Positions 10,162 through 26,584 of a DNA stretch of 64,000 bases are shown one piece after another; positions within the stretch are counted from its first letter, which is position 1; every line of letters starts with the position of its first letter. The notes beneath the pieces are model-generated. The model was not told the origin of the DNA. It did no database searches and saw only the letters and a list, made by a program, of their open reading frames with translations. Both the position numbers and the translations under genes were made by a program. Source of the DNA: Thermoproteota archaeon (GTDB lineage Archaea > Korarchaeota > Korarchaeia > Korarchaeales > Korarchaeaceae); contig JAOZFI010000043.1 of assembly GCA_027491395.1 (NCBI GenBank), positions 47,502 through 111,501 of the forward strand, in the 5' to 3' direction.

Positions 10162-12059
10162 TCCACTATCGTAACTTTCCCGGGGGGCAACGCCCTCACT
10201 ATATCATCCACACTCACTTCCACAGGCTCCGCCGGGGGTTCTGAGTCCCCACGTATTTTAATGTTTTCTTGCAGCCAACCCTCCAGCACATTCTTTAACA
10301 CTTTTGCGGCCTCTTCCTTGCCAGTGGATCCAGGTCTAAGGCATACAGAGTAGAGGAGGGGGGCTCCCGGGGGCGCTGCAGTCAATTTGATCCCGTCAGG
10401 GGTCTTCTGAAAGCCCACGCAGATCTCGAGCCTCACCCGCAAGTAATTCCTCCTACCAGTTATGTAAAAGCTCCCCTTAGGGAGATACAGTCCGGAGGGC
10501 GCATGTTTCGAGACTTGGGATCCCTTGACGTAGTAAACATCCACCGAGGTCAGACCCTCTCTCCATGCTCTAGAAAACACCCCAGCTGCAGTGGCCGCTT
10601 GATTCACTGATGCTTCATCCGGCTCCCTCCCATCCAGCTTGAGTACCACCACTGAGCCCCCCGGCATGTCAACGTGGAAGAACAGGTCGTTCTCGTCCAA
10701 GTACTTGGACACTATCTCGGCGTTGGTTTGGGCATCCCTCCCCCCTATCACTAGGAAGCCCCCCGATGTATAGAACCACCTGAATCTCTCGTACCATCGG
10801 AGCTTCCGTCTCTTAGTTGGGACTTTTTTGGAAGCCCTCTCCTTGGCTTCAGTCCTGAGCCTGTTAAGCTTCTCCTTCAAGGACAAAATGGCCGTATCGA
10901 TCCTTTCATGCTTCTCCCTATACTTCTTCGCCCTGTTATAGTACTCGGAAGCGTTTTCAGTGGCCGATTTGAGCATGTCTAGCTCGATCTCTCGACCATC
11001 CAGATTCAACACGACCTTGCCGGACTTTCTGTCAACTGAAACTATGGGAGGAGGCGAAATCCCCTTCCTAGCCTTCTTCAGCGCCTCATCCACCTCGGTC
11101 AAGTGGAGATATATGAGATCGCCCATAGACCTGTATTCCTCCGCCTTTTCCGCATACTCCTTCTTCAGCTCTTCCTGCCTTTGAATCTCAACCTCCAAAG
11201 ATCTTATCTTCTGGTCTTCCTCATATTCAGGCCTTTCAGCGGTATAATAGAGCTGAATCGCTCTAGATAGACTGTGTATGGACCTCCTCTCCATCTGGAG
11301 GTGATGTAGTGGGAAGGCCGAGAAGTTCACCACTTCACTGTCCTGAACGTAAATCATGGGTTCCGTCTCCCTATTGAGGAACGAATGGATCAGATCGGCC
11401 AGCTCAGCGATAAGAGCCTCGATCTCGGGTAGAGGTGACTTCAGATCCACACCCATCAGGTGAGAGATCTCGTCCATGTAAGGGGGGCCCACCCCGAAGG
11501 ACCCTATAAGTACCTTCCACAGGGGCAGTCTCTCCTTTACACCCTTCCTGAGGAGCGTTAGTACGGCATCCCTGTCACTGGGATCCAGCTCAATCCCCGG
11601 ACCAGCTGGTGGCCGGTAGATATCGCCAGGCCTGATAGATCTACCCCTAAACTCGACTCTCTTGAGGGGCAAGAGGATCTCACCCTCCTGAACAAGTATG
11701 AGATTCCCTCCACCGAACAGCTCCACCACAAGCTGCATATCACCGAAAGATAAACGAAGGATTCTCTCGACTCCTACTTGGGATATCTCTGTGAATCTCC
11801 TACCCTCTAAGTGCTTTCTGAGGGCCATGATGAATGGGGGCGGGCTCCGAGGTTTCGGCCACTTGAGGTCTGTCAGAAAGATGAAACCGCTCAGGTCGAT
11901 CACGAGTTCCTTGCTCCCATCAACTTCCGGGTAGAAGAAGAGGGAAAAGACACCTTCATCCAACAGGTAAGCCTTCTTAAGTATCTTACCATCCAGTGAG
12001 AGCAGCTCTCTGACCAGATGCCTGAGATCCAGACCAGTAACCTTTCTCTTCCGTCCCAT
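10158..12059 (-). CDS. rqcH: Ribosome quality control factor Rqc2/NEMF (NFACT)
   Basis: FIMALRKHL, ERIL, ELFGGGNLIL, NASEYY, WYERFRWF, GGRDAQTN, FHVDMPG, YLPKGSF. Confidence 0.9.
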   Translation of the reverse strand: MGRKRKVTGLDLRHLVRELLSLDGKILKKAYLLDEGVFSLFFYPEVDGSKELVIDLSGFIFLTDLKWPKPRSPPPFIMALRKHLEGRRFTEISQVGVERILRLSFGDMQLVVELFGGGNLILVQEGEILLPLKRVEFRGRSIRPGDIYRPPAGPGIELDPSDRDAVLTLLRKGVKERLPLWKVLIGSFGVGPPYMDEISHLMGVDLKSPLPEIEALIAELADLIHSFLNRETEPMIYVQDSEVVNFSAFPLHHLQMERRSIHSLSRAIQLYYTAERPEYEEDQKIRSLEVEIQRQEELKKEYAEKAEEYRSMGDLIYLHLTEVDEALKKARKGISPPPIVSVDRKSGKVVLNLDGREIELDMLKSATENASEYYNRAKKYREKHERIDTAILSLKEKLNRLRTEAKERASKKVPTKRRKLRWYERFRWFYTSGGFLVIGGRDAQTNAEIVSKYLDENDLFFHVDMPGGSVVVLKLDGREPDEASVNQAATAAGVFSRAWREGLTSVDVYYVKGSQVSKHAPSGLYLPKGSFYITGRRNYLRVRLEICVGFQKTPDGIKLTAAPPGAPLLYSVCLRPGSTGKEEAAKVLKNVLEGWLQENIKIRGDSEPPAEPVEVSVDDIVRALPPGKVTIVE

Positions 12060-12083
12060 ACAGCCTTTCTCAGGCCAGCTCTC

Positions 12084-12092
12084 TTTATATAT
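12084..12092. promoter_or_regulatory. Probable bidirectional TATA element
   Basis: TTTATATAT about midway in the 51-bp gap between the divergent starts at 12059 (-) and 12111 (+). Confidence 0.5.
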
Positions 12093-12110
12093 TCAATTGG
12101 TTACTGGGGC

Positions 12111-12983
12111 ATGATGAAGCCAAAGCACAAAGTCTATTACCTCAGGGTAGCCCTATTATCCCTAGTTGGGCTAGTGAGCGGTATCGCTGGACTCACTCCG
12201 ATGGAGGGGCTGAGCCTCTTCTTGCTTGCTTACTTCCTCGTTACACCCCTATCCCTCAAACTCTGGGGGGACGAACTGAAGGACCTTGGGCTGATGAAAC
12301 TATACAGAGAGGCCTTGGGATCATCGTTCCTGGCTCTCCTCCTGATTTGGACCCTAGTCATTAATCTGATGGGTCCGGGAGTCCCCATCTACGTGGTGAG
12401 GGCATCTCAGGGTGGTATATATCCCATACAGACGATAGATGGTCGGATCGTTGGTCCCGGCGAGAGACCCCTAGCCGGATACAATGCCGTCTATCTGAAG
12501 CTCACGGACCACAACATAGAGGACATATACATCGGTTCTTACGCCAAAAAGGGAGACCTAACGAAGGTCATACTAGGTCGCACAGAGGTAACCCTGTCTA
12601 AAGGAGAGATACACATCTCCGGCGTCTACAACTTGTCGATCGGGTCAGACTATAAGAGGATGAGCAAGCTATTGGGGAACATAACAATATTCGTGAACGG
12701 GACCCTCGTCATAAATGGGACTATGAAGCTCAATCCCGGTGAGACCAAAGAGTTTACCTACAACTCCACCATGATGGAGGTGTCCCATACCGCTCCCGGC
12801 GTCCTCGACGTAGAGATAGACTCAACGAGGGGCAGGATTACCGAGTACCCCGTTTCAGTCTTCATAAGCTCAATAGAGGAGAAGGAAGGCTATATCTTCG
12901 TTTTTGATTCAGTTAAACCGTTTTGGAAGACTAGGACGGCTAGGGTAGATGACAGCTACGTTGTCGTCCTGCCCCCGGGGTGA
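12111..12983 (+). CDS. Membrane protein: N-terminal EMC6-like 3-TM domain plus C-terminal beta-rich extracellular domain
   Basis: YYLRVALLSLVGLVSGIAGLT..GLSLFLLA and GSSFLALLLIWTLVINL resemble the EMC6 pattern. The C-terminal part carries N-x-S/T sequons. Start trimmed to ATG 12111. Confidence 0.6.
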   Translation: MMKPKHKVYYLRVALLSLVGLVSGIAGLTPMEGLSLFLLAYFLVTPLSLKLWGDELKDLGLMKLYREALGSSFLALLLIWTLVINLMGPGVPIYVVRASQGGIYPIQTIDGRIVGPGERPLAGYNAVYLKLTDHNIEDIYIGSYAKKGDLTKVILGRTEVTLSKGEIHISGVYNLSIGSDYKRMSKLLGNITIFVNGTLVINGTMKLNPGETKEFTYNSTMMEVSHTAPGVLDVEIDSTRGRITEYPVSVFISSIEEKEGYIFVFDSVKPFWKTRTARVDDSYVVVLPPG

Positions 12984-13481: not shown

Positions 13482-13525
13482 ACCCCAAGCTTGTCTTGTG
13501 TTGGAAAGTTAACGGGGTGCTAGTG

Positions 13526-14533
13526 ATGCCCAGAAGACACGGTTCGCTACAGTTCGCTCCTCGGAAGAGGGCTAGAACTCAGAAGGCAGTCTTCAGATCC
13601 TACCCTGAACTGCCCCTTGAGGAGCCGATCCTAGTGGCCTTCCCGGGCTATAAGGTGGGTATGGTTCACGTCTTGATGAAGGAGGATAGGCCTGGTAAGC
13701 TCAACATAGGTCAGCCAGTGACCTTGGCCTCCACCGTAGTGGAGACCCCCCCAATAGAGGTTGTCGGCTTCAGACCCTACGTGGGAACCTACTACGGGAT
13801 GAAGGCCGTGACCACAGCCATCAAAATCGAGCAGAATGATCTGATCTCCAGAACTCTCACTATAGGCGATGGGGTTGACAACTGGGACGAGGCCCTCGCC
13901 AAGGTGGAGGCTAACAAGGATAGGATAGAGGAGGTCAGGATTCTAGCCTACACCAGGCCTGATCTGGCGGGGATACACAAGAAGAAGCCAGAATTCCTTG
14001 AGATCCCGATTAAGGGCGGTTCCATGGATAGGAGGCTTGAGTACGCCCAGTCCTTGGTTGGCTCTAAGGTCAAGGTGAACCAAGTCTTCAAGGCGGGACA
14101 GCTGGTGGATGTCACCGCGGTCACCAAGGGGCACGGGTGGCAGGGAGTCGTCAGGAGGTTCGGAGTCGAGCTGCTCAGGCACAAGGCCGGCAAGGGTAGG
14201 TGGAGGGTCGGGAGCTTGGGATCTAGGCATCCGCCCTACGTGACTTGGAGGATCCCGAGGGCTGGCCAGACTGGTTACCACAAGAGGACGGAGTACAACA
14301 AGAGGATACTGATGATTGCCGATCTGTCAGAGGAGGGGGCTCTGAACGTAACGCCTAAGGGTGGATTCAAGAATTACGGGATCCTGAAGAGCCAGTATGT
14401 GATCCTCTCCGGATCGATACCCGGTCCAACGAAGAGGTTCGTGTTCATGAGGCATCCGATAAGGCCCAAGTACGAGGAACTTCCAGAGCCCGAGATAAGC
14501 TATGTGAGCTCCGTGGGCTGGTTGAAGAGGTGA
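13526..14533 (+). CDS. rpl3: 50S ribosomal protein uL3
   Basis: GSLQFAPRKRA, GYKVGM, ETPP, TKGHGWQGVVRRFG, RAGQTGYHKRTEYNK. Confidence 0.97.
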   Translation: MPRRHGSLQFAPRKRARTQKAVFRSYPELPLEEPILVAFPGYKVGMVHVLMKEDRPGKLNIGQPVTLASTVVETPPIEVVGFRPYVGTYYGMKAVTTAIKIEQNDLISRTLTIGDGVDNWDEALAKVEANKDRIEEVRILAYTRPDLAGIHKKKPEFLEIPIKGGSMDRRLEYAQSLVGSKVKVNQVFKAGQLVDVTAVTKGHGWQGVVRRFGVELLRHKAGKGRWRVGSLGSRHPPYVTWRIPRAGQTGYHKRTEYNKRILMIADLSEEGALNVTPKGGFKNYGILKSQYVILSGSIPGPTKRFVFMRHPIRPKYEELPEPEISYVSSVGWLKR

Positions 14534-14537
14534 TTAC

Positions 14538-15326
14538 ATGGCCTCGGTTCCGGTGTTCAATCTGAACGGCGAGAGAATAGGGGAGGTGGAGCTTCCCTCC
14601 ATCTTCGACATGGAGGTCAGGCCCGACACCATAAGGCGGACCTACCTGTCCCAACTGACCGCTAGGATACAGCCCCAAGGTAGGGATCCCTTGGCCGGAC
14701 TCAGGACGTCGGCTGAGTCTTGGGGGGCAGGTCACGGAGTGGCTAGGGTGCCTAGGGTGAAGGGTAGGGGCTACCCCGCCGCCAGCAGGGCGGCTAGAGC
14801 GGTCATGACCGTGGGCGGCGCGAAGACCACGGCACCCAGATCTTGGAAGGTCATCTGGGAGAGGGTGAACAAGAAGGAGAGGAAGCTGGCTATCCTATCG
14901 GCCATAGCGGCGACTGGGAGGATAGACTTGGTCAAGGCCCGGCATAGGGTGGATCTGGACTATGTCCCCTTGGTAGTGACGGACGATCTGGAGGGCATAT
15001 CCAAGACGTCCGAACTCCACTCCCTGCTGCTGAAGCTAGGTCTGAAGGACGAGCTGGATAGGACCAAGAGGAGGTTCAAGAAGATAAGGGCCGGACGGGG
15101 GAAGATGAGGGGAAGGGTCAGGCAGAGGGCGAGGGGCCCGCTTATAATATACCTCAACGAGGGCTCTCCAATAGCTAGAGCTGCCAGGAACATACCTGGA
15201 GTTGATGTAGTCGCTCTCAGGAACCTGAGCGTGATCCACTTGGCCCCGGGAGGTGTTCCCGGGAGACTGACCGTATGGACGGAGGGAGCCCTCCGTTCCC
15301 TGGAGGAGGTGATGGGTATTGCCTAA
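14538..15326 (+). CDS. rpl4: 50S ribosomal protein uL4
   Basis: [42 protein letters not shown]. Confidence 0.97.
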
Positions 15327-15600
15327 GATAGGCGACTTCGATCCCTACAAGATACTGAAGGCCCCCATCTCCACCGAGAAAGTTGTTAGGATGATCAACG
15401 AGGAGAACAAGCTAGCTTTCTTCGTGGACAGAAGGGCTAACAAGAAGGAGATAAAGAGAGCTGTTGAGGAAGCCTTAGACGTCAAGGTAGAGAGGGTGTG
15501 GACCATAATTACCATAGACGGCAGGAAGAAGGCATACGTGAAGCTCAGTCCCGAGTATAGGGCCTCGGATGTCGCTGCCAAGCTGGGCATAATAGGGTGA
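15319..15600 (+). CDS. rpl23: 50S ribosomal protein uL23
   Basis: [32 protein letters not shown]. Confidence 0.95.
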
Positions 15601-15604
15601 TGGT

Positions 15605-16339
15605 ATGGGTAAGCGTATACTGGTTCAGAGGAGGGGAAGGGGAGGTATCCAGTTCAGATCTAGGGATCATCTCAAGATAGCTCCCGTGAAGTACCCGCCT
15701 CAGATAGGAATGAACGGCCTCGTTAGGGGAGTCATAAGGGAGATACTACACGAGCCAGGAAGGCACACCCCGATCTCTCTAGTGGAGCTCGAAGATGGCA
15801 CCAAGTTCTATTACGTGCCTCCGGAGGGAGTATACGAGGGTCAGGAGATACAGATAGGTCCTGGAGCCGAGATAAAGACGGGAAACGTCCTTCCCTTGGC
15901 TGATATACCTGACGGGACCTTGGTCTCCAATGTGGAGATAAGGCCGGGAGATGGGGGAAAGATAGCTAGGAGGAGCGGGACCTACGCTCTAGTGTTCTCT
16001 CACGAGGGAGATAGAGTCCTCTTGAGGCTTCCCTCTAGGAAGGAGAAGTTCGTGGATGCCAGATGCAGAGCCACCATAGGCATAGTGGCTGGTGGCGGCA
16101 GGATAGAGAAGCCGTTCATGAAGGCGGGTCTCAAGTATTACCACGAGAGAACCCATCCGAAGAGGTGGCCTGTGGTCAGGGGTGTGGCCATGAACCCAGT
16201 CAGCCACCCGCACGGTGGTGGATCCCACAAGAGACCTGGCAAGCCTACAACTGTGGCTAGGACGGCTCCGCCAGGACAGAAAGTTGGACATATAGCTGCT
16301 AGGAAGACGGGTAGGGCCAAGAGGAGGGCTGGCCTCTGA
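15605..16339 (+). CDS. rpl2: 50S ribosomal protein uL2
   Basis: [47 protein letters not shown]. Confidence 0.97.
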
Positions 16340-16379
16340 GCCCAACCTTTATTTATGGCTCAAGTATGGGGTGACATGT

Positions 16380-16778
16380 ATGTCCTCCAAGGAATTCAGG
16401 TACAGGGGTTATACGCTGGAGCAGCTCCAGAGCATGACCCTAGATGAGCTGGCAGAGGTGATGCCAGCTAGAATCAGAAGAACTCTGAAGAGAGGTCTCT
16501 CTCCTGAGAACAAGAAGCTCTTGGAGAAGATCAGGAAGTACAGGAACAAGGGCATAGACAAGGTGATAAGGACACACAGGAGGGACATGCCCGTCCTCCC
16601 TGAGATGGTGGGGGCGAAGATAGCCGTCCACAATGGGAAGGAGTTCGTCGAGATAACCATAGTCCCCGAGATGATAGGACACTACTTGGGAGAGTTCGCG
16701 ATGACCAACAGGATAGTGAGGCACGGTAAGCCCGGTAAGGGAGCCACCAGATCAAGCAAGTTCGTGCCACTAAAGTGA
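16380..16778 (+). CDS. rps19: 30S ribosomal protein uS19
   Basis: [45 protein letters not shown]. Confidence 0.97.
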
Positions 16779-16784
16779 TTCACC

Positions 16785-16789
16785 TTTTT
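16785..16789 (+). terminator. Oligo-T terminator after rps19
   Basis: TTTTT within a pyrimidine run just after the stop codon and before the tRNA promoter. Confidence 0.4.
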
Positions 16790-16803
16790 ATTCCCCCTAA
16801 TCA

Positions 16804-16810
16804 TTTATAC
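16804..16810 (+). promoter_or_regulatory. TATA box of tRNA-Ser
   Basis: TTTATAC 23-29 bp upstream of the mature tRNA 5' end. Confidence 0.55.
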
Positions 16811-16832
16811 CGGAATCCGGAGCGCCGCTCGA

Positions 16833-16919
16833 GCCGGGGTGGCCGAGCCAGGACCAAGGTGCCCGCCTTGAGAGCGGGTGGCCCTCCGGGCCGCGAGGGT
16901 TCGAATCCCTCCCCCGGCG
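16833..16919 (+). tRNA. tRNA-Ser (anticodon TGA), intronless, CCA not encoded
   Basis: Acceptor stem GCCGGGG/CCCCGGC with discriminator G. Anticodon arm CCCGC-CTTGAGA-GCGGG. Long variable arm. T arm GAGGG-TTCGAAT-CCCTC. Confidence 0.95.
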
Positions 16920-18161
16920 CTACACCTTGGGAAGCAGCTCCGGAGCGTTCCTCATTATGGCCACTCTGGGCTTACCCTCCAATAATTTCAGTTCAGAGTC
17001 TATGGCCTCCTGCAGATCTCCATACCAAGAGAAGCCAAGAGACCTAGCTTCTTCCTCGGAGATTCCATCGGAGACTAGGACTACCTTTATCCTAGATCTC
17101 ACCTTAGACCAGACCATGGAGTTGGCAGCGCCCACGGGATCCTCTATCTCTCCCCTCCTGACTTTGGCATCTATCTCCTCCGGACTCAATCCAGCCAGCT
17201 CTAGGACCTCTGGGTGAGTGACAGCCACGCCCTCAGGGCAGGGTGTAGCGAGTATGAGGATTCCCCCATCCCTGAGGACCATCTCAGCTGGATATAACGA
17301 TTTGTGGGCCTGCCAGAACTCTATGTCGGCTGGATAGCTGCTGGCGATCACTAAATCGAGGTTGCTGGGAGCCTCCACCTCATACACGCGTCTAGCCTCA
17401 TCGACCGCCTCGGAAAAGACCTCCCTGACACCGCCCGCGCCCACCCAAGTGGGCCTCCCAATCCCATCGACGACTACCTCCACCAATCCCCTCAGTCCAG
17501 CCCTCTCTGCAACCAAGTCCATGAGTGCCCTCACAGGGTTCTCTTTCATTCCCAAGAAGCTCCTCCTCAGTCTAGCGCTGAGCAAGTGCATGTCTCCCAC
17601 AGTCCTCTCACCGGACACACCGGGCAGGACTATCTTAGACCCACCTGAGAAGCCGGAGACATGGTGAGGAGTAACCATTCCCACGCCTATAGAGAAATCC
17701 ACCTTCATGAGGACGTTGCTCACCTCGATGGGAGACCCGTCAGGCATCGATCCTACTATAGCTTGCTTTTCCGGATCCCTATAGTCGGGTTGAACGACCT
17801 CGACCCTCTCCATCGCCTCCCCATACTTCCTCTCCAACTCCCCTTGGGTCATGGGCCTGTGCGTTCCCAACGCGGCCAGCAGCAGAATGTCATCATCACT
17901 CAGGCCAGCTGAATTTAGGTAGTCTAGGAGGTGCGGGAGGATGTCCGCAGTGGGAGTCGGTCTTGTCACATCGTCGGCAATTATAGCCACCCTCCTACTT
18001 GGGCGGATAATCTCATCCAAGCCTCTCAAGGCTCGTTGTAGTGCTCCTCGGGCATCCTCGAGGGGCGTAACATTGTTGGGACCCATTTCAACTACTTGAG
18101 CCTCATCGGGGAGGTGGAAGCTCAGGTAGCGCTCCCCGTACTTGAGGGAATAGTGGACCAT
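16920..18161 (-). CDS. LarA-family nickel-pincer-dependent 2-hydroxyacid racemase/epimerase
   Basis: DDVTRPTP, ALGTHR, PHHVSGFSGGSKIVLPG, FWQAHK match the LarA cofactor-binding and catalytic motifs. Confidence 0.88.
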   Translation of the reverse strand: MVHYSLKYGERYLSFHLPDEAQVVEMGPNNVTPLEDARGALQRALRGLDEIIRPSRRVAIIADDVTRPTPTADILPHLLDYLNSAGLSDDDILLLAALGTHRPMTQGELERKYGEAMERVEVVQPDYRDPEKQAIVGSMPDGSPIEVSNVLMKVDFSIGVGMVTPHHVSGFSGGSKIVLPGVSGERTVGDMHLLSARLRRSFLGMKENPVRALMDLVAERAGLRGLVEVVVDGIGRPTWVGAGGVREVFSEAVDEARRVYEVEAPSNLDLVIASSYPADIEFWQAHKSLYPAEMVLRDGGILILATPCPEGVAVTHPEVLELAGLSPEEIDAKVRRGEIEDPVGAANSMVWSKVRSRIKVVLVSDGISEEEARSLGFSWYGDLQEAIDSELKLLEGKPRVAIMRNAPELLPKV

Positions 18162-18163
18162 CT

Positions 18164-19117
18164 CTACTCAGCCAACCTAAATGCCAGCTCTAAAGCCTTA
18201 AGCATGCTGCCCTCATCGGCCACGCACCTGCCGACTATATCGTAGGCCGTACCGTGATCCACGGAGGTCCTCACATAGGGCAGCCCCAGCGTCACATTGA
18301 CTGCTCTACTGAAGCCAATTATCTTAGCCGGTATGTGACCCTGATCGTGGTACATGGCCACGACAGCGTTGAACTCCCCCCTTAGCGCCCTGAGGAAGAC
18401 AGTGTCAGGTGGTAAAGGGCCTTCTACCCCGATCCCTTCGCTTCTGAGCTCCTTCACGGCAGGACCTATGATTTCGATCTCCTCCCTTCCTATCACACCG
18501 CCATCTCCGGCGTGGGGGTTCAACCCCGCCACCGCGATATTAACCTCCTCACCCAACCTTCTCAGGAAAGAGGCCGTCAGTCGAACGGTCAGGTAAATCT
18601 CCTCCTTACTTATGGAGGTTGGGACGTCCTTCAATGGGATATGAGTGGTGACGTGGCTCACCCTCAATTCGTCCAAATACAAGAGCATCTTGACTTTCAC
18701 ACCTCCGGCCAGCTCCGCGAGTAACTCTGTGTGACCGGTGAACCTGATTCCAGCCATGTTAACGGCCAGCTTGTTCACGGGTCCGGTCACTAAGGCGCTG
18801 GCCTTACCCTTCCTCACTAGTTCCGCCGCCCTCACAACATACCTGTATGAGTAAGCACCACCCTCGGGAGTCGCCCTACCCTTCTGGACATCCTCGCCAC
18901 CCATATCTATCACTGGGACGCTGTCCACAAGGTGAGTCGGCTCATCGACGGATAAGAACCTCAACTTCAGACCGCAGAGCTCCGATACTTCCTCGAGACA
19001 CCTCTTACACCCCACCACTGTGATGGGTTTCCCGCCACCGACTCGGGCGAGGGACTTCGCGACGACCTCGGGACCTATACCAGCGGGATCACCCATCGTT
19101 ATCAAGATCGGCCTCAC
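18164..19117 (-). CDS. pdxA: PdxA-family dehydrogenase (probably PdxA2, tetronate-4-phosphate dehydrogenase)
   Basis: TMGDPAGIGPE, GHTE, TTHIPL, GLNPHAG, AMYHDQGH, RTSVDHGTA. Adjacent to a DUF1537 kinase. Confidence 0.9.
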   Translation of the reverse strand: MRPILITMGDPAGIGPEVVAKSLARVGGGKPITVVGCKRCLEEVSELCGLKLRFLSVDEPTHLVDSVPVIDMGGEDVQKGRATPEGGAYSYRYVVRAAELVRKGKASALVTGPVNKLAVNMAGIRFTGHTELLAELAGGVKVKMLLYLDELRVSHVTTHIPLKDVPTSISKEEIYLTVRLTASFLRRLGEEVNIAVAGLNPHAGDGGVIGREEIEIIGPAVKELRSEGIGVEGPLPPDTVFLRALRGEFNAVVAMYHDQGHIPAKIIGFSRAVNVTLGLPYVRTSVDHGTAYDIVGRCVADEGSMLKALELAFRLAE

Positions 19118-20183
19118 GTAACCACCTCCTCACCCTGATTAACGTGGTCTCCGTTCCGAATCCTCCCGCCTTAGTTACTATGGGCAGACCATCGAGCGGT
19201 CCACCCACTATCCATCCAGCGGCAAGCCCCTCCTCTGGAGGTTCCCCTATCTTTACACCTGTTATCCCCATTCCCTCTACCAATCTCTTGAGAGTCTCCC
19301 CACCTATCACCACCAACCCTTCAATCTCGTAAAGCAAACGGCGGATCTTCTCAAGGGTGCTGGGCTTCACCTTGGCTAGGCTGAAGCGAATTGCCGCATC
19401 TCCTCCCTCCCTAAGTACTCGGGCGGCCTCCTCTATACTGGAATTGTCAGCCTCCAGAACGGGTATCTCCTTTGAGAGGGCTTTGAGCTGCCTGACTGCT
19501 ACCTCATTCTCCGATCCGGATACGAATAGGATAGGACCGTTTGCTCTAGGGACCTCTCCCTTTTCCGCTCCTATCAACTGGGCCAGTTCCAGAGCTAGCC
19601 CTGCGCTACCTCCCATCACTCGATAGTCGGAAATCTCACGGAAGAAGAGGGACAGCGCCCTTCTGTCGGGGACCTCCTTGGCGATCAGAATACCCGAATC
19701 ATCCTCTCCCCAGTAACCCACCGTCAGATCGGGAGATGTGGCCCTCACTATCTCCTCTATCAAGGAGGAGACAATGGGTAGCTCTCTCACGTATTCCGTC
19801 TCCTCTAAGGGAACGCCTCGAACGTACAGTCGACCGTTTAGCACGATCCTTCCCTGCTCGGGGTAAGCCGGGGTGAAGGGCAAGGGGGATTCTAACATCG
19901 AAACTATGGGGCTCAGCTCGGCACCTATGTTCCCCCTCATGGTGGAATCCACCTTCTTGTACAGGTACCTCGGACTGGTTAATTCTAGAACGGCCTCTAA
20001 GATCTCTCTGATCCTCCTTTCAGCCTTCTCAGGGACGGCAAGCCTAGTATCGGTGCTCAAGGATACGCATTTCCATTTATATCCGGCGAATTCTCGGTTA
20101 AAGGCGACAAAAGAACCGCGCCCAAACTTAGATGCCGTGTCTAAAGCGCCAGTTAAATCATCAGCTAGGATCAGTACATCCAT
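19089..20183 (-). CDS. Four-carbon acid sugar kinase (DUF1537; DtnK/DenK-like)
   Basis: LADDLTGALD, YKKVDSTMRGNIGAE, PAYPEQGR, GGET, TKAGGFG. Confidence 0.9.
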   Translation of the reverse strand: MDVLILADDLTGALDTASKFGRGSFVAFNREFAGYKWKCVSLSTDTRLAVPEKAERRIREILEAVLELTSPRYLYKKVDSTMRGNIGAELSPIVSMLESPLPFTPAYPEQGRIVLNGRLYVRGVPLEETEYVRELPIVSSLIEEIVRATSPDLTVGYWGEDDSGILIAKEVPDRRALSLFFREISDYRVMGGSAGLALELAQLIGAEKGEVPRANGPILFVSGSENEVAVRQLKALSKEIPVLEADNSSIEEAARVLREGGDAAIRFSLAKVKPSTLEKIRRLLYEIEGLVVIGGETLKRLVEGMGITGVKIGEPPEEGLAAGWIVGGPLDGLPIVTKAGGFGTETTLIRVRRWLREADLDNDG

Positions 20184-20229
20184 CAGGGGGCTATGAGGGG
20201 AGGTTCCCCTAAAACAGTTGTCTAGGTAC

Positions 20230-20562
20230 TCAGGTAGTCAGCATGACTATGCTTATCTTGACGTCCTCGGGGATGGTGACCCCCATTATGCTCCTGATAT
20301 ACCTCTCGTCAGGGTTAGGAATGTCTATTATGCGCTTGTGGATCCTCAGCTCGTATTTGTCGTACCTGTTCGTCCCTTCACCCGAGGGATTCCTGAGAGC
20401 GGTAACCCTGAGCCTCTTGGTCGGCAGGGGTATCGGGCCCTTGACCCTGACCCCCATCTTCTCGGCCATCTCCTTGAACATCCTGCTCACTTGGTCCAAG
20501 CTCTTGGGATTGGTGCTGACCATCTCTATCCTCAGTACCTCGGGCATTTTACCACCACTCAC
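20230..20562 (-). CDS. rps10: 30S ribosomal protein uS10
   Basis: KGPIPLPTKRL, GEGT, RIHKRIID. Follows tuf. Confidence 0.95.
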   Translation of the reverse strand: MSGGKMPEVLRIEMVSTNPKSLDQVSRMFKEMAEKMGVRVKGPIPLPTKRLRVTALRNPSGEGTNRYDKYELRIHKRIIDIPNPDERYIRSIMGVTIPEDVKISIVMLTT

Positions 20563-20599: not shown

Positions 20600-21868
20600 T
20601 TACTTCTTCTTCCTCTCCATCGGAACCACATCGAGCACTATGCCAGCTGCGACGGTCATGCCCATGTCCCTGACCGCGAACCTGCCGAGCGGCGGGAAGT
20701 CGCTGTACTTCTCTATCACGAAGGGCTTCAGCGGCTGGAACTTCACTATGGCGGCCTCTCCCCTCCTTATAAAGCTTGGGTTCTCCTCAATGACCTGACC
20801 ACTCCTCGGATCGATCTTCTTCTCTATGGATACCATTTTGCAGGCCATGTGTCCGGTGTGGGCGTGTATTACGGGCGTGTAGCCTGGAGCTATAGCGGTC
20901 GGGTGCTGCAGCACCACAATCTGGGCGGTGAACTCCTTGGCGACAGTGGGCGGGTTGTCAGGATGGCCTATGACATCGCCCCTCTTGATCTCCTTCTTAT
21001 CGATGCCCTTGATGTTTATTCCGATGTTGTCTCCGGGCTCGGCCTTGTCTAGCTTCTCGTGATGCATCTCTATACTCTTGACCTCCGCGGTCTTACCGAG
21101 AGGCTCTATGATTATGGTGTCACCGGGCTTAATCACTCCGGTCTCCACCCTACCGACCACGACGGTACCGACTCCGGTTATGGAGAACACATCCTGTATG
21201 GGTATCCTGAGGGGCTTGTCCACCGGCTTGGGTGGCGCGGAGAACGTGTCGAGCACCTCATAGAGAGTCGGACCGTTGTACCAAGGCATGTTCTCGCTCT
21301 TCCTGACCACATTGTCTCCCTTCAGACCGCTCACGGGGATGAACTGTATTTTGTCGGGGTCATACCCTACCTTCCTGAGGAGCTCGGCCACCTGAGACTT
21401 GACCTCCTCGAACCTCTCCTTGCTGTAGTTCACGGTCGGATCGTCCATCTTGGATATGGCGACAGCAAGTTGATTGACTCCAAGAGTCTTGATCAGGAAG
21501 ACATGTTCTATGGTCTGAGCTTGGACGCCCTCACCAGACTTGGCGGAGACCACGAGTATAGCGGCGTCGGCTTGGCTGGCCCCGGTGATCATGTTCTTGA
21601 CGAAGTCCCTATGTCCAGGGGCGTCTATTATCGTGATCATCTTATGTGGCGTCTCGATCTTGGTATGGAAGAGGTCGATGGTCATACCCCTCTCTCTCTC
21701 CTCCTTAAGCCTGTCCACGAGCCAAGCGAACTGGGCGTCAGCTGCCTGCTCCTCGGGAGGAAGCTCCTCCACTAGCTGGAGGTCGAAGAACATCCTCCCT
21801 ATCAGCGTCGACTTTCCGTGGTCGACGTGTCCCACGAAGATCAAGTTCACATGTTCCTTCTCGGCCAT
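20600..21868 (-). CDS. tuf: Translation elongation factor aEF-1alpha
   Basis: [54 protein letters not shown]. Confidence 0.97.
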
Positions 21869-22456: not shown

Positions 22457-23800
22457 TCACATAGCTACGACCTTCTCCACTTCTCTCAAAAACTCCTCAG
22501 CTTTGGAGCGGTCGTCCGATTCCACGAGGACCCTTATCTTGGGTTCTGTCTTGGAAGGGCGTATCAGTCCCCAGACCTCCAGGTCGGAGAGTCGAACTCC
22601 ATCGGTCAGATCGATCTCCATACCTCTTCTCTCACCGAGAGATATGAGATCCCTCTTCAGCGAACTCCAGTCCCTCCTTTTCGGGAAGTTAGCTCTTATC
22701 GTGTGATACTTGGGGAGCTCGGAAACCAGCTCGCTTATGCTTCTTTTCTTGGAGGCCATTATCTCTAGAATGAGTGCCGCAGCAAGAGGACCGTCCCTCC
22801 CCATGTGGAAATCAGGCAGTATGACCCCTCCGCAGCTCCCCTCACCGCCCACCGTAGCACCTATCTCCCTCATCTTATGAGCCACGTAGGCCTCGCCCAC
22901 GGGGGTTCTGTATATCTTAGCACCCCTCCTCCTCGCAATGTCATCGAACATCTTGGAAGAGGCCACGTTCACCACGAGAGAGCCTCCGCCTCTCCTCTCC
23001 AAGATGTAGTCGACGACCAGCGCGAGGGTGATGTCCTCGGATAGTACCTCTCCACTCTCAGTTACAAGGGTAAGCCTGTCAGCGTCGGTGTCATGAGCGA
23101 AACCCACATCCGCTCCGGTCGATACAACGACCTTGGACAGGTCTCGTAGAGTATCAGGCCTAGGTTCCATCTCCCTGACGAATATCCCGGGAGACGAGTT
23201 CAGCGTGTTGACCTTACATCCAAGTGATTGGAAGAGGTAGGGCGTGACATAAGCACCGGCACCCCCGTTGACATCCAGCACCACCTTGAAGCCCGCCTCT
23301 GAGATCACCTCGATGCTAACGAAGTTCAGTAGGTCCTCTAAGTAGTCCCCAGTGACATCTACGACCTCCTCCATGCCTATATCGTTCCAAGGAACCGACC
23401 TGAATTCCTCCCTCTCGAACCTCTCCCTGAGCCTCTCCATGTCATCCGGATGGAGGAGGAGCCCACCTCTACCTATCAGCTTCAAGGCGTTCCATTCAGG
23501 GGGGTTGTGGCTGGCCGATATGATGATACCGCCATCCGCATCGTACCTCTCGACGGCCCATTCAATCGTGGGAGTCGGGGCTATGCCTATGTTGAGCACA
23601 TTGACCCCCGCAGAGAGCAGGCCTGACACGACCGCCTTGTCCAGTACGTACCCGCTGGGTCTTGTGTCCCGCCCAACGACCACCAAACTTCCCTTTCCTA
23701 GTTCCCTACCGAAGATGTTGGCTATCTTCTCGACTATAACCGAGTCGATGCCATCTCCGAATATCCCCCTTATGCCAAGGGGTGTGAATATCAGGGTCAT
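22457..23800 (-). CDS. Phosphohexomutase (GlmM or PMM/PGM)
   Basis: GRDTR, SASHNP, DTDADR, GGEGS, RPSKTEP. Confidence 0.9.
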   Translation of the reverse strand: MTLIFTPLGIRGIFGDGIDSVIVEKIANIFGRELGKGSLVVVGRDTRPSGYVLDKAVVSGLLSAGVNVLNIGIAPTPTIEWAVERYDADGGIIISASHNPPEWNALKLIGRGGLLLHPDDMERLRERFEREEFRSVPWNDIGMEEVVDVTGDYLEDLLNFVSIEVISEAGFKVVLDVNGGAGAYVTPYLFQSLGCKVNTLNSSPGIFVREMEPRPDTLRDLSKVVVSTGADVGFAHDTDADRLTLVTESGEVLSEDITLALVVDYILERRGGGSLVVNVASSKMFDDIARRRGAKIYRTPVGEAYVAHKMREIGATVGGEGSCGGVILPDFHMGRDGPLAAALILEIMASKKRSISELVSELPKYHTIRANFPKRRDWSSLKRDLISLGERRGMEIDLTDGVRLSDLEVWGLIRPSKTEPKIRVLVESDDRSKAEEFLREVEKVVAM

Positions 23801-25806
23801 TCGATCACCTCCCCCGCTTCCTCGCCTTCACTCCCTTTCCACCCAATCCTCTCCTGTGAAAAGGACATGTAGGCCTTGACAGAGGGCAGGATCACTGACA
23901 GCAGAATGATCACTCCGACGATGCTGGCTAGAGGCTCTAGCGGGCTCGACCTCATGATCACCACTAGGCTCGTCCCCATGATGTTGAGGACCCCTCCTAT
24001 GGCGAATCCCGCCACGAAGGGGACTGCAGTCTCCCAGAAGAACTCCTGACCCCCATATCTCCTAGTCAAATATCTGAGCAGGCTGGATATCATGTAGAGG
24101 ATGGCGTATTGGGGTATCAAGAGGCCGAACAGCACTCCAACGGCGCTTATGCCCAGCCATGGTACGCCTCCCCTCAGCAGGAAGACGATAGCTCCTATTG
24201 CGAGACCCTCCAAGAAGTACTCCGGCTTCCATCCAGCTAAATCGCCCATCACAGAGAGGAGACCCACATTCGGGTAGATGGGGGAGGCCATATCTAATGG
24301 CTTCTTCGCCGCTCCCCAGGCGTGGAACGATACCAGTAGAAGGACTCCTCCCACCACGGCTCCAAACAGGAGTCCCATGAGCTGAGCCCTGAACATCTCC
24401 CTGGCCCTCATACCTATGGATTTAGCGTATTTGAAGCTCTCCACCGAGGCAGTGGGTTGAGCTGACACAGTGTCGGTCATCATGGCTGAAGACGCGCCCG
24501 AGAAGAACGCATCGGAGGAGGCGCGCTGGAACATGCCTGAAGCGAAGAACGCGTTGTCCACGATGCCCCTGATTCCCAAATCCACTGGGATTATCCAGTT
24601 ACCCATTCCTATCGTCCACACGTAGCCGTGCCAGTACATGAGGTGCAGGATGACGAGCGCAAGGGCTATGAGCGGGCTGACCCCCAGAAGCATTATCATA
24701 AGGGTGCTGGCGGCGAAGGTGAGCAACCATCCAATCACGAGCCACTTTCTCGTTAGGGGCTCGTCCTCCCAGGCCCTCCAGCTATCCCTTATATATCTGT
24801 ACCCGAGTATGAGGGGGATGAGTCCCACAGCCAGATAGAGGCCCGTTGATATGTGATACCACGGAAGAGGCCCATTCACTGCAGCATTTGATGAGTAAAA
24901 AGCGAAATCATGCCCCGGTTCATAAGGCAAGAGACCCATTCTCACAAGTACGGGTGGAACCAAGAGGAAGGCCACTATGGCAGTCGCCCACATGGACACC
25001 TGAATCTCTAAAGGTATGAGAAACGCCCAAGCCAGCAGATCCGGGGTTATCTGGGTCCCGGGGTCCATGCCAAAGGCTCCTCCTGGGAAGAACTGCTGAA
25101 GCCAAGGTGTCAGATCGATCCTCAGCTCGGCAGCCGGGAAGTCCTCCCATATCGCTTGGAGGAGGTGTCCCTTCTGGAAGAGGCTGATGCCGAATCCAGC
25201 TAATAAGCCGAGCCACAGCCACCTGAGACTCTCTCCCCTCTCCTTAACCAGTTGGGAGAACTTGGCACTGACCGTGGCCACTGGAAAGATGAGTTTCTCC
25301 TTCTCTAAGTAAAATCTCCTGAAGGGTATGATGTTGAGGTAGGAAAATAGGGACAGGATCACAGCGAAGAGGATGGCGTAAGTTAAGGGGGGTATCCAAG
25401 CAGACCAGTTGATCCTCCCGCCCAGCAGCAGGGCCCTCAGTGCTTCCTGATCCTTGGGAACTAGGAACTCGGGGAGTATTCCCCTCAAGGGGAAATCCTT
25501 TGCTAGCCCAGCTCTGGCCCAAGATGGCAGGATGTACTGCCAACCGACGAAGAGTACTGTGATGACCTCTATGGACCCGAATATGACACCCATTTCCCCG
25601 ATAGACAAAGCATTTCCCTTCACAGTGGAGAGAGCGTAGGCCAAGGTGAGCACCACCAGAGCAGCCTCGCCGGTCCAGCTGTAGCCGGCTGCGCTCCTCA
25701 TGACCGTCTGGGCGAAGAGCATGAACAGGCCGAAGGCTAGGGAGAGAGTTATAGACCTGAAGGTGAATGCACCCCCAGTTAGACTACGTTCTTTCATTTC
25801 TTCCAA
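23797..25806 (-). CDS. Polytopic membrane protein, OPT/oligopeptide transporter-like
   Basis: Many TM helices and an EKLIFP motif similar to the OPT-type ExLxFP. Family assignment is tentative. Confidence 0.55.
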   Translation of the reverse strand: MEEMKERSLTGGAFTFRSITLSLAFGLFMLFAQTVMRSAAGYSWTGEAALVVLTLAYALSTVKGNALSIGEMGVIFGSIEVITVLFVGWQYILPSWARAGLAKDFPLRGILPEFLVPKDQEALRALLLGGRINWSAWIPPLTYAILFAVILSLFSYLNIIPFRRFYLEKEKLIFPVATVSAKFSQLVKERGESLRWLWLGLLAGFGISLFQKGHLLQAIWEDFPAAELRIDLTPWLQQFFPGGAFGMDPGTQITPDLLAWAFLIPLEIQVSMWATAIVAFLLVPPVLVRMGLLPYEPGHDFAFYSSNAAVNGPLPWYHISTGLYLAVGLIPLILGYRYIRDSWRAWEDEPLTRKWLVIGWLLTFAASTLMIMLLGVSPLIALALVILHLMYWHGYVWTIGMGNWIIPVDLGIRGIVDNAFFASGMFQRASSDAFFSGASSAMMTDTVSAQPTASVESFKYAKSIGMRAREMFRAQLMGLLFGAVVGGVLLLVSFHAWGAAKKPLDMASPIYPNVGLLSVMGDLAGWKPEYFLEGLAIGAIVFLLRGGVPWLGISAVGVLFGLLIPQYAILYMISSLLRYLTRRYGGQEFFWETAVPFVAGFAIGGVLNIMGTSLVVIMRSSPLEPLASIVGVIILLSVILPSVKAYMSFSQERIGWKGSEGEEAGEVIE

Positions 25807-25828
25807 GAGATTCCCCTCCTCTCACACC

Positions 25829-26584
25829 CTAGATGATCAGTCCACCTTTAATACTTAGGTACTCGTCGGTCATCGACCGAGAGAAATCCCTCTTAACTCC
25901 TTCCGACTCCCTCAGGGTATCCACAACCTCCGGCAGGGGAAGCAGGTATCCCAGCAGGGAGATCATCTCGGCCTCCCTCCCCATCACTTTCACGGAGCTG
26001 AGAAGAACATTCACAGAGAAGATGGAGTGGGGAAAGGACACGGGCAGAAAGGCGCACAGATCTTGCAGGTATATATCTTCACCGGAGATACCAACCACCC
26101 TGGAGGATCTGAGGAGAGACTCTTTGACCTCCCCCAAGCTTAAATTTTCTCTCAGCTTCACGGCCAGACGGAATGCCCTGAAGTACGGGCAGCAAAACAG
26201 TTCGTCGCTTATCCCCTCGACGGAGATGTCCTGAAGGGGGAGACCCAAGGATAACCTCTCGAGCAGTACCTCATATGGCCTCACGACCATGCCGGAGCTG
26301 CCGTAAGAGATCCTTACGGAGTATTCCCTAGAGCTATACTCCAAGAAGGCATCGGTCCCCTCTATGAAATCATCTAGGAATCCAGAAACCTTTACCCCCA
26401 TCTCTTTGAAAGGCTCTAGGCTGGACTCACTGCAGTAGATATCCAATCTCTTGGAAATCGGTCTGGAGAATGGAGTTATATCGTGATTGTAGGCTCCGAT
26501 TACCTTGATGTCCGGCTGCCTCTCTAAACAGTCGGCAATGGGGATAGTATAGGGATCATGGCCCACTATCCCTACTCTCATCAT
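25829..26584 (-). CDS. Degenerate archaeal (type II) GAPDH homolog, probable pseudoenzyme
   Basis: N- and C-terminal similarity to type II GAPDH (RVGIVG..., QPDIKVIG, PEVVDTLR...LSIKGG), but no GxGxxG and no SCNT motif. 251 aa. Overlaps the pgk stop codon. Confidence 0.65.
   Translation of the reverse strand: MMRVGIVGHDPYTIPIADCLERQPDIKVIGAYNHDITPFSRPISKRLDIYCSESSLEPFKEMGVKVSGFLDDFIEGTDAFLEYSSREYSVRISYGSSGMVVRPYEVLLERLSLGLPLQDISVEGISDELFCCPYFRAFRLAVKLRENLSLGEVKESLLRSSRVVGISGEDIYLQDLCAFLPVSFPHSIFSVNVLLSSVKVMGREAEMISLLGYLLPLPEVVDTLRESEGVKRDFSRSMTDEYLSIKGGLII

Follow-up and report, generated by a model that had tools for sequence, protein, structure and literature searches.

A three-gene cassette in a 64,000-nucleotide stretch of DNA from a Thermoproteota archaeon (contig JAOZFI010000043.1; this whole stretch is called the window below) is proposed to encode a route for four-carbon sugar acids that includes a nickel-pincer epimerase. 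The three genes are co-directional on the minus strand and encode a DUF1537-type acid-sugar kinase of compact archaeal form (P0003, 364 aa, positions 19089-20183; assigned by Pfam and NCBIfam), a PdxA2-like NAD(P)-dependent decarboxylating dehydrogenase with a GTG start (P0002, 317 aa, 18164-19117; Pfam and closest solved structure) and a candidate 2-hydroxyacid epimerase of the LarA superfamily that would depend on nickel-pincer nucleotide (NPN) as its cofactor (P0001, 413 aa, 16920-18161; Pfam, solved homologs and residues). The 3' end of the kinase gene overlaps the start of the PdxA gene by 29 bp (19089-19117), and a gap of 2 bp separates the PdxA gene (end 18164) from the LarA gene (start 18161). 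We propose, with moderate confidence, that P0001 is an NPN-dependent C2-epimerase for D-erythronate/D-threonate or their 4-phosphates, feeding a DtnK-like/PdxA2-like route to dihydroxyacetone phosphate (DHAP) and CO2. The trio is best read as a cassette complete in itself that serves the catabolism or salvage of four-carbon sugar acids (tetronates), and the tetronate 2-epimerase interpretation is supported as far as computation reaches.

D-erythronate and D-threonate differ solely at C2, the carbon that LarA enzymes invert in 2-hydroxy acids, and PdxA2 chemistry removes this stereocentre en route to DHAP. In the proposed pathway, the LarA homolog, equipped with NPN supplied by LarB, LarC and LarE, would invert C2 of a tetronate by transient hydride transfer and thereby interconvert D-erythronate and D-threonate, or their 4-phosphates. 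The DUF1537 kinase would phosphorylate the C4 hydroxyl, and the PdxA2-like enzyme would oxidise C3 and decarboxylate the product, giving DHAP and CO2. The kinase/PdxA2 pair is probably specific for one epimer, and the role of the epimerase would be to turn the epimer that this pair cannot use into the one that it can. In sequence, both partners lean to the D-threonate form, which suggests a flux from D-erythronate to D-threonate, on to D-threonate 4-phosphate and finally to DHAP and CO2. We infer the substrate, the step at which epimerisation takes place (free acid or 4-phosphate) and the direction of flux. The precedent of the gluconate epimerases and the presence of family members beside dehydratases point to epimerisation of the free acid. 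The 4-phosphate is kept possible by the nearness of the family to dicarboxylate racemases, by two conserved pocket histidines and by an archaeal relative (L018:4167-7239) in which the gene of an HAD-family phosphatase abuts the kinase gene, followed by LarA, with no PdxA within 6 kb. This last arrangement hints at epimerisation of the phosphorylated acid.

The domains of P0001 and its catalytic and NPN-binding residues point to membership in the LarA superfamily. Pfam matches cover Lar_N (PF09861, E 8.1e-49) and LarA_C (PF21113, E 1.1e-07), and the protein aligns over its full length with the solved LarA homologs 9eid, 6d6z and 2yjg. Residues were placed in the numbering of Lactobacillus plantarum LarA by two routes, a pairwise HMMER alignment of P0001 to 8ezf and a profile of 78 family members aligned full-length to 5huq. 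The catalytic histidines H108 and H174 of LarA correspond to H101 and H166 of P0001, the NPN-binding residues D72, R75, K184 and H200 to D64, R67, K176 and H192, and the carboxylate-binding residues Q295 and K298 to Q284 and K287. In the family alignment all eight are invariant across 44/44 trio rows (the 43 trio loci of the survey described below plus the window), and among the 31 non-trio rows they occupy every filled cell (30 or 31 rows, one being gapped at two positions). The original prediction, made from the letters of the DNA, is borne out on these basic points: it had described three tightly coupled genes with the overlap and gap given above, for which open reading frames (ORFs) and Pfam return the exact coordinates and families, and it had read the LarA His/Lys motifs as intact, in line with the catalytic and NPN-binding residues that are all present in the alignments.

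The substrate class is suggested by a further set of positions, through which the specificity of LarA enzymes is read (section 8 of PMC7583248; section 6 of PMC11770544). LarA F175, F176, Y294, V297, D356, W358 and T359 correspond to P0001 H167, V168, W283, H286, G344, A346 and N347, respectively, a combination unlike that of every assigned LarA group. Lactate racemases carry F, F, W and E/Q at the positions of F175, F176, W358 and T359, and malate racemases have H/Q in place of W358 and K in place of T359 (the GHK motif; PMC11770544 and PMC7583248). For gluconate 2-epimerases, the pattern at the same four positions is E-V-A-H (PMC11770544, section 6). The G-A-H-K of the malate racemase Mar2 aligns with G344-A345-A346-N347 of P0001, the family profile against 5huq gives the same columns, and the P0001 family alignment has A/S/G at the W358 position followed by L/N/V at the T359 position. 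Written out, the signature of the family is H-H-[IV], W-Q-A-H-K and small-small-small-[LNV]. Alanine at W358 and valine at F176, as in gluconate 2-epimerases, fit a polyhydroxy acid substrate.

Model scores place P0001 outside the named groups as well. Its best NCBIfam model is the malate racemase NF052593, at 267.6 bits with a cut-off of 500; a second malate-racemase model (NF052595) gives 260.3 bits (cut-off 462), the LarA model NF033504 gives 214.9 (cut-off 460) and the hexonate-epimerase model NF052594 gives 80.8 (cut-off 500), so that every NCBIfam equivalog cut-off is unreached. The same holds for 78/78 scanned family members, of which the best has an E-value of 1.1e-109, about 367 bits by our own scaling, and a Sporomusa member gives 362.3 bits on the malate-racemase model. 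Three assignments were tried and rejected. As a malate racemase of the LarAH5/LarAH6 type, P0001 lacks the GHK signature and the equivalog scores; as a lactate racemase, it has H167, V168, A346 and N347 instead of F, F, W and E/Q and falls short on NF033504; as a D-gluconate 2-epimerase (GntE), it matches at two of four positions (V168 and A346) and falls short on NF052594. P0001 would appear to be a new candidate member of the superfamily, acting in a variant of a known pathway.

These data bear directly on the idea that P0001 racemises dicarboxylates of the malate or tartrate type and accompanies the kinase/PdxA pair only as a passenger. Its top NCBIfam and PDB scores are to malate racemases (NF052593 as above; 319.6 bits for Mar2 with the family profile), and malate racemases are described in section 10 of PMC11770544 as the largest LarA group, with members in archaea. 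Nevertheless, the H/Q-K pair of the GHK motif is replaced by A346-N347, with A/S/G and L/N/V at these positions in the family, all 78 scanned members stay below the malate-racemase cut-off, and the strict co-inheritance and the four gene orders described below speak for a functional tie to the kinase and PdxA. Moreover, another LarA homolog is encoded in the same genome (G000:C39:6817-8025; locus L008:859-2100, minus strand). It is 32% identical to P0001, has G-Y-H-K at the malate-racemase signature positions and reaches 323.3 bits on the malate-racemase model (cut-off 500), which makes it a better malate-racemase candidate than P0001. A dicarboxylate racemase is accordingly considered improbable. 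Identity with a plain lactate or malate racemase had been named as a refuting outcome when the cassette was first noticed, and the A346/N347 signature and the model scores of P0001 speak against it. Paralogs resembling the second homolog recur in many trio-less genomes of the class.

A nickel-pincer enzyme requires its cofactor, and genes for making it are present in the genome. larB (217.7 bits, cut-off 175), larC (160, cut-off 90) and larE (205.9, cut-off 150) are clustered on contig C27, the sole place in the genome with matches above cut-off; the window lies on contig C37, in agreement with the remark in the original prediction that no larB, larC or larE genes are found in it. A genome-wide search for the three genes had been named there as a test able to refute the idea, and all three are present above their cut-offs. 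Their presence permits the proposed function and is not specific to the trio, because the second LarA homolog needs them too.

The partners of P0001 resemble tetronate enzymes. P0003 matches SBD_N at residues 4-149 (E 4.9e-29) and NBD_C at 280-348 (E 3.8e-11), the two domains of DUF1537, covering profile positions 2-157 of 230 and 100-168 of 168, respectively. When aligned with 4xfm, a solved DUF1537 protein, P0003 is well conserved over residues 3-142 and 288-357 and about 65 aa shorter in the middle. In its domains and conservation P0003 agrees with the DUF1537 four-carbon acid-sugar kinases (DtnK/DenK/OtnK), and it is the sole DUF1537 gene of the genome. Its best NCBIfam model is D-threonate kinase (137.7 bits, cut-off 450), ahead of 3-oxo-tetronate kinase (58.8, cut-off 350), and the full-length kinase of a Sporomusa trio shows the same order (308 bits vs 184). 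P0002 matches PdxA at residues 33-312 (E 4.7e-102) and is the sole PdxA gene of the genome. Among solved structures it comes nearest to D-threonate 4-phosphate dehydrogenase 6e85 (271.3 bits; 2hi1, 270.6), whereas Escherichia coli PdxA 1ps6 gives 224.4 bits. P0002 thus combines a full-length PdxA fold, a greater nearness to PdxA2 than to PdxA and a position adjoining a DUF1537 kinase gene. It gives 296.4 bits on the D-threonate 4-phosphate dehydrogenase model NF002891 (cut-off 583) and passes the generic PdxA model TIGR00557 only (371.2 vs 290.35); therefore, annotation pipelines would name it PdxA.

A rival possibility is that the PdxA protein acts in vitamin B6 (pyridoxal 5'-phosphate, PLP) synthesis, with the kinase recycling 4-hydroxythreonine and LarA serving a step of an unorthodox route. 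The generic PdxA cut-off is passed, PdxA2 is able to catalyse the PdxA reaction according to PMC9997740, and neither PdxS/SNZ (PF01680) nor PdxJ (PF03740) was matched in the 98.4% complete genome, leaving the PLP source unexplained. The missing PdxJ also cuts the other way. Without it there is no known onward step for the PdxA product, and P0002 is placed outside the vitamin B6 route that depends on deoxyxylulose 5-phosphate. The trio is furthermore dispensable, unlike an essential cofactor route (none of its genes in 26/40 genomes of the class and five empty sites, see below), and LarA substrates are 2-hydroxy acids, not 2-amino acids. A role in PLP synthesis is therefore regarded as very improbable. 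The organism lacks a recognisable de novo vitamin B6 route and is likely a PLP auxotroph or dependent on salvage.

Conservation of the trio bears on the joint function of its genes. A scan for relatives of P0001 at one genome per species gave 154, of which the best 80 were retained as loci, and partners were searched by tblastn with the three window proteins within 6 kb of each LarA locus. Both PdxA and DUF1537 genes were found on the same strand as LarA at 43/80 loci, a kinase only at 4/80 and PdxA only at 1/80 (again on the LarA strand), and neither partner at 32/80. At eleven of these 32, the flank on one or both sides is shorter than 1.5 kb; among them are two Thermoproteota orthologs cut exactly at the expected PdxA. 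The 43 trio loci fall in Chloroflexota (17), Bacillota (10), Thermoproteota (5), Acidobacteriota, Thermomicrobiota and Njordarchaeota (2 each), and Nitrososphaerota, Spirochaetota and Thermodesulfobacteriota (1 each), nine named phyla in all, with two further records without a named phylum. Sporomusa and Pelosinus (loci L047 and L061) are among the culturable carriers. Among the 44 trio cases, four gene orders occur: K-PdxA-LarA (21, with K for the kinase), PdxA-LarA-K (15), LarA-K-PdxA (6) and LarA-PdxA-K (2). The neighbourhood survey that had been suggested as a check thus finds the three genes together, always co-directional, in more than half of the retained loci and in at least nine phyla, and their linkage is far beyond chance.

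Outside the trio, the neighbours are more varied. Among 105 co-directional proteins of at least 150 aa lying within 3.5 kb of 36 non-Thermoproteota trios, recurrent types were RpiR/SIS regulators (5), M28 peptidases (5), GntP permeases (4), IlvD/Edd dehydratases (4), molybdopterin oxidoreductases (4) and TRAP transporters (3), and no general fourth gene was found. Because these neighbours are heterogeneous, the trio itself is taken as the conserved core. Bacterial trios are embedded in acid-sugar uptake loci. Fusions of LarA to PdxA or DUF1537 were also sought; none was found in proteins of 724-2065 aa among 8000 scored candidates, which is weak evidence.

Several observations weigh against a dedicated tetronate epimerase. 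Both partners are missing within 6 kb from the 32 family loci mentioned above, and some non-trio LarA loci instead have an IlvD/Edd or altronate-type dehydratase as neighbour. On the LarA tree the trio loci are dispersed, the label requiring 15 changes, and the active-site signature is equal in trio and non-trio members, save four non-trio rows with Tyr at 167; attempts to separate trio from non-trio LarA genes were unsuccessful both by tree and by signature. DUF1537 genes occur elsewhere in 4/5 non-trio genomes examined; none is present in the fifth, whose LarA locus adjoins a dehydratase. In overall sequence the family comes closest to Mar2, the kinase and PdxA lie far under the equivalog cut-offs (137.7/450 and 296.4/583), the archaeal cassette has no adjoining transporter or regulator, and no assayed enzyme of the LarA family of P0001 was found in the literature. 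With scores this low, the tetronate substrates of the partners are likewise putative. The scattered label, the common signature and the dehydratase neighbours together imply that the family may serve more than one sugar-acid route, and P0001 and its relatives may act on a wider set of sugar acids.

The same observations raise the question of whether the logic of the pathway (epimerise, phosphorylate, oxidatively decarboxylate) is right and the acid sugar is another one, such as a C5, C6 or branched acid or a tetronate of the L-series, LarA being the 2-epimerase of that acid. The distance of the kinase and PdxA from the cut-offs of characterised tetronate enzymes is compatible with this, as is the finding that, in other genomes, LarA family members sharing this signature neighbour dehydratases of the IlvD/Edd and altronate types. 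In addition, DUF1537 kinases of other substrates exist, for example that represented by the 3-oxo-isoapionate kinase model, which gives 65.6 bits on the Sporomusa trio kinase. On the other hand, the top references of kinase and dehydrogenase are both D-threonate enzymes and, to our knowledge, every characterised PdxA2/DUF1537 pair acts on four-carbon acids. Another acid sugar is hence considered unlikely, while retaining appreciable weight; the proposed epimerisation of D-tetronates is preferred.

The history of the cassette was followed in 40 species genomes of the class to which the window belongs. Orthologs of P0001 (66-100% identity) occur in 14/40 genomes, PdxA in 13/40 and DUF1537 in 13/40, all in one genus. 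All three genes are found in 12/40 and none in 26/40, and the 2/40 mismatched genomes are fragmentary assemblies with trio genes at contig ends. S10 orthologs were found in five congeners, and in 5/5 trio-less congeners examined the site is empty, with the ribosomal protein genes S10 and S19 convergent and about 180-340 bp apart; in the window, the S10-S19 site is occupied by 3.45 kb containing the trio. These empty sites define the trio as a unit indel cassette (3.3 kb) at a fixed site. Within the genus, these 3.3 kb are either present or absent between two translation operons, a clean polymorphism in which the module moves as one block. In the trees of all three genes, the Thermoproteota rows group into a single clade (SH-aLRT, the Shimodaira-Hasegawa-like approximate likelihood ratio test, 100), and the Thermoproteota LarA clade is nested among bacterial sequences beside Njordarchaeota (support 85), a position compatible with lateral acquisition. 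In one congener, the LarA ortholog (G028:C4:20262-21499) consists of two overlapping pieces with an internal TAG, the PdxA and kinase genes looking intact; a frameshift, decay of this copy or a fault of the assembly might account for it.

In thermophilic archaea, the cassette might alternatively serve internal metabolite-damage salvage and not a nutrient pathway. Breakdown of sugar phosphates driven by heat or oxidation would yield tetronates or 4-phosphoerythronate as mixed epimers, the NPN enzyme would epimerise the phosphorylated acid, and PdxA2 would return everything to DHAP. Transporters and regulators are absent beside the cassettes at Thermoproteota and Njordarchaeota loci, the archaeal relative mentioned above has the HAD phosphatase, kinase and LarA without PdxA, and the closest sequence neighbours of the family are racemases that act on doubly charged substrates, all of which are hints in this direction. 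A further hint is that pdxA2 (K22024) and dtnK/denK (K22129) appear in Table 1 of PMC13185595, which lists the ten gene families with the strongest association with shifts to higher optimal growth temperature; this also fits their presence in a lineage of hot environments. Such a salvage role is held as doubtful, tentative speculation. If true, it would provide the first NPN enzyme with a phosphoester substrate.

The surroundings of the cassette are those of an archaeal chromosome. The source is an archaeon of hot environments with a genome of 1.72 Mb, and the closest public relatives of the window are Thermoproteota/Crenarchaeota metagenome-assembled genomes. Pfam identifies EF-1alpha, NFACT and the archaeal-type ribosomal proteins L3, L4, L23, L2 and S19. 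Upstream, the cassette is bounded by EF-1alpha (20600-21868, minus strand; Pfam) and by ribosomal protein S10 (20230-20562, minus strand), named from its translation and its place after EF-1alpha and not from a family search. Between the S10 stop and the kinase ATG lies a spacer of 46 nt (20184-20229, minus strand), read from the sequence, with a TATA-like TTTTA at 20214-20210 on the minus strand, 27-31 nt 5' of the ATG. This position would fit a leaderless archaeal transcript, in which TTTTA would act as promoter element, and the trio is probably transcribed as an operon. Downstream, the plus-strand L3-L4-L23-L2-S19 operon (13496-16778; Pfam) is convergent with the LarA gene, and its last gene, S19 (16371-16778, plus strand; Pfam), forms the boundary. 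The base composition of the cassette is unremarkable (GC 0.56, compared with 0.52-0.565 in the surroundings). A look for sequencing runs covering the 3.3 kb gave none, nor any RNA holder.

Other features of the window were recorded in passing. At 16775-17047 on the plus strand, an ORF of 90 aa continues past the stop codon of S19 and shares 128 bp with the 3' end of the LarA gene; Pfam gives no match for it, and it probably does not represent a gene. L22 and S3, which would be expected next, do not follow S19 in the window. A protein of 321 aa (12018-12983, plus strand) matches Pfam EMC6 over residues 39-114 (27.5 bits, cut-off 23.3), which is unusual for an archaeon. At 23797-26584 on the minus strand, a membrane protein of 669 aa with DUF6785 and weak OPT-transporter matches is followed by an ORF of 251 aa without a Pfam family, both placed between the genes of phosphoglucomutase and phosphoglycerate kinase.

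Most members of the LarA superfamily are without a known substrate, and for one widespread family the gene context gives a short list, namely the four tetronates and their 4-phosphates. If true, the proposal would add a new nickel-pincer reaction and explain how one kinase/PdxA2 pair consumes both C2 epimers of a four-carbon sugar acid. It would also correct the automatic name '4-hydroxythreonine-4-phosphate dehydrogenase PdxA', since the genome lacks PdxJ. A sugar kinase or hydratase in the gene context of LarA 'could indicate a sugar epimerase', as put in one passage of PMC7583248. The original prediction also knew of no description of the activity, and this holds within the full-text literature searched, supplementary LarAH context tables not being covered: papers linking LarA or nickel-pincer chemistry with DUF1537, PdxA2 or tetronates were not found, except PMC11770544, which deals with 4-deoxy analogues, LarA is not mentioned in the excerpts of PMC12994016 and PMC13753588, and a term search of PMC11796402 gave no hits. 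Table 2 of PMC11770544 gives weak promiscuous epimerisation of 4-deoxy-threonate/4-deoxy-erythronate for lactate racemases and hydrophobic 2-hydroxyacid racemases. This side activity indicates that NPN enzymes can invert C2 of a 2,3-dihydroxy C4 acid; unlike the activity proposed here, it is weak and belongs to other LarA groups, and a dedicated tetronate or phosphotetronate epimerase is not reported there.

Among characterised LarA enzymes, Mar1/Mar2 (LarAH5/LarAH6) and LarAH62 share with P0001 the fold, the top overall scores and all catalytic and NPN-binding residues. P0001 differs from them by A346/N347 in place of GHK, by the loop H167-V168 and by W283 and H286, which flank the carboxylate-binding Q/K, and its scores are about half of the equivalog cut-offs. 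GntE (LarAH19/20) offers the precedent of a LarA enzyme assigned from a sugar-acid gene context. Like GntE, P0001 would invert C2 of a polyhydroxy acid before a catabolic enzyme takes over, with Ala and Val at the positions of W358 and F176. Unlike GntE, its family has His and not Glu after the catalytic His, and Asn/Leu for His at the T359 position, and in the window it is partnered not by a dehydratase but by a kinase together with a decarboxylating dehydrogenase.

The closest relatives of the whole cassette are the DtnK/DenK and PdxA2 systems. Zhang et al. 2016, in PNAS, are said to have described the catabolism of D-threonate/D-erythronate by DUF1537 kinases (DtnK, DenK) together with PdxA2. 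As in these systems, the kinase and PdxA genes of the window are adjacent and translationally coupled, C4 phosphorylation followed by C3 oxidation with decarboxylation to DHAP is predicted, and the best references of the two partners are D-threonate enzymes. The window departs from them in that its kinase and PdxA do not reach the equivalog cut-offs, bacterial trio kinases and solved proteins exceed the archaeal kinase by about 60 aa, the archaeal cassette comes without transporter or regulator, and the operon adds a third, nickel-pincer enzyme.

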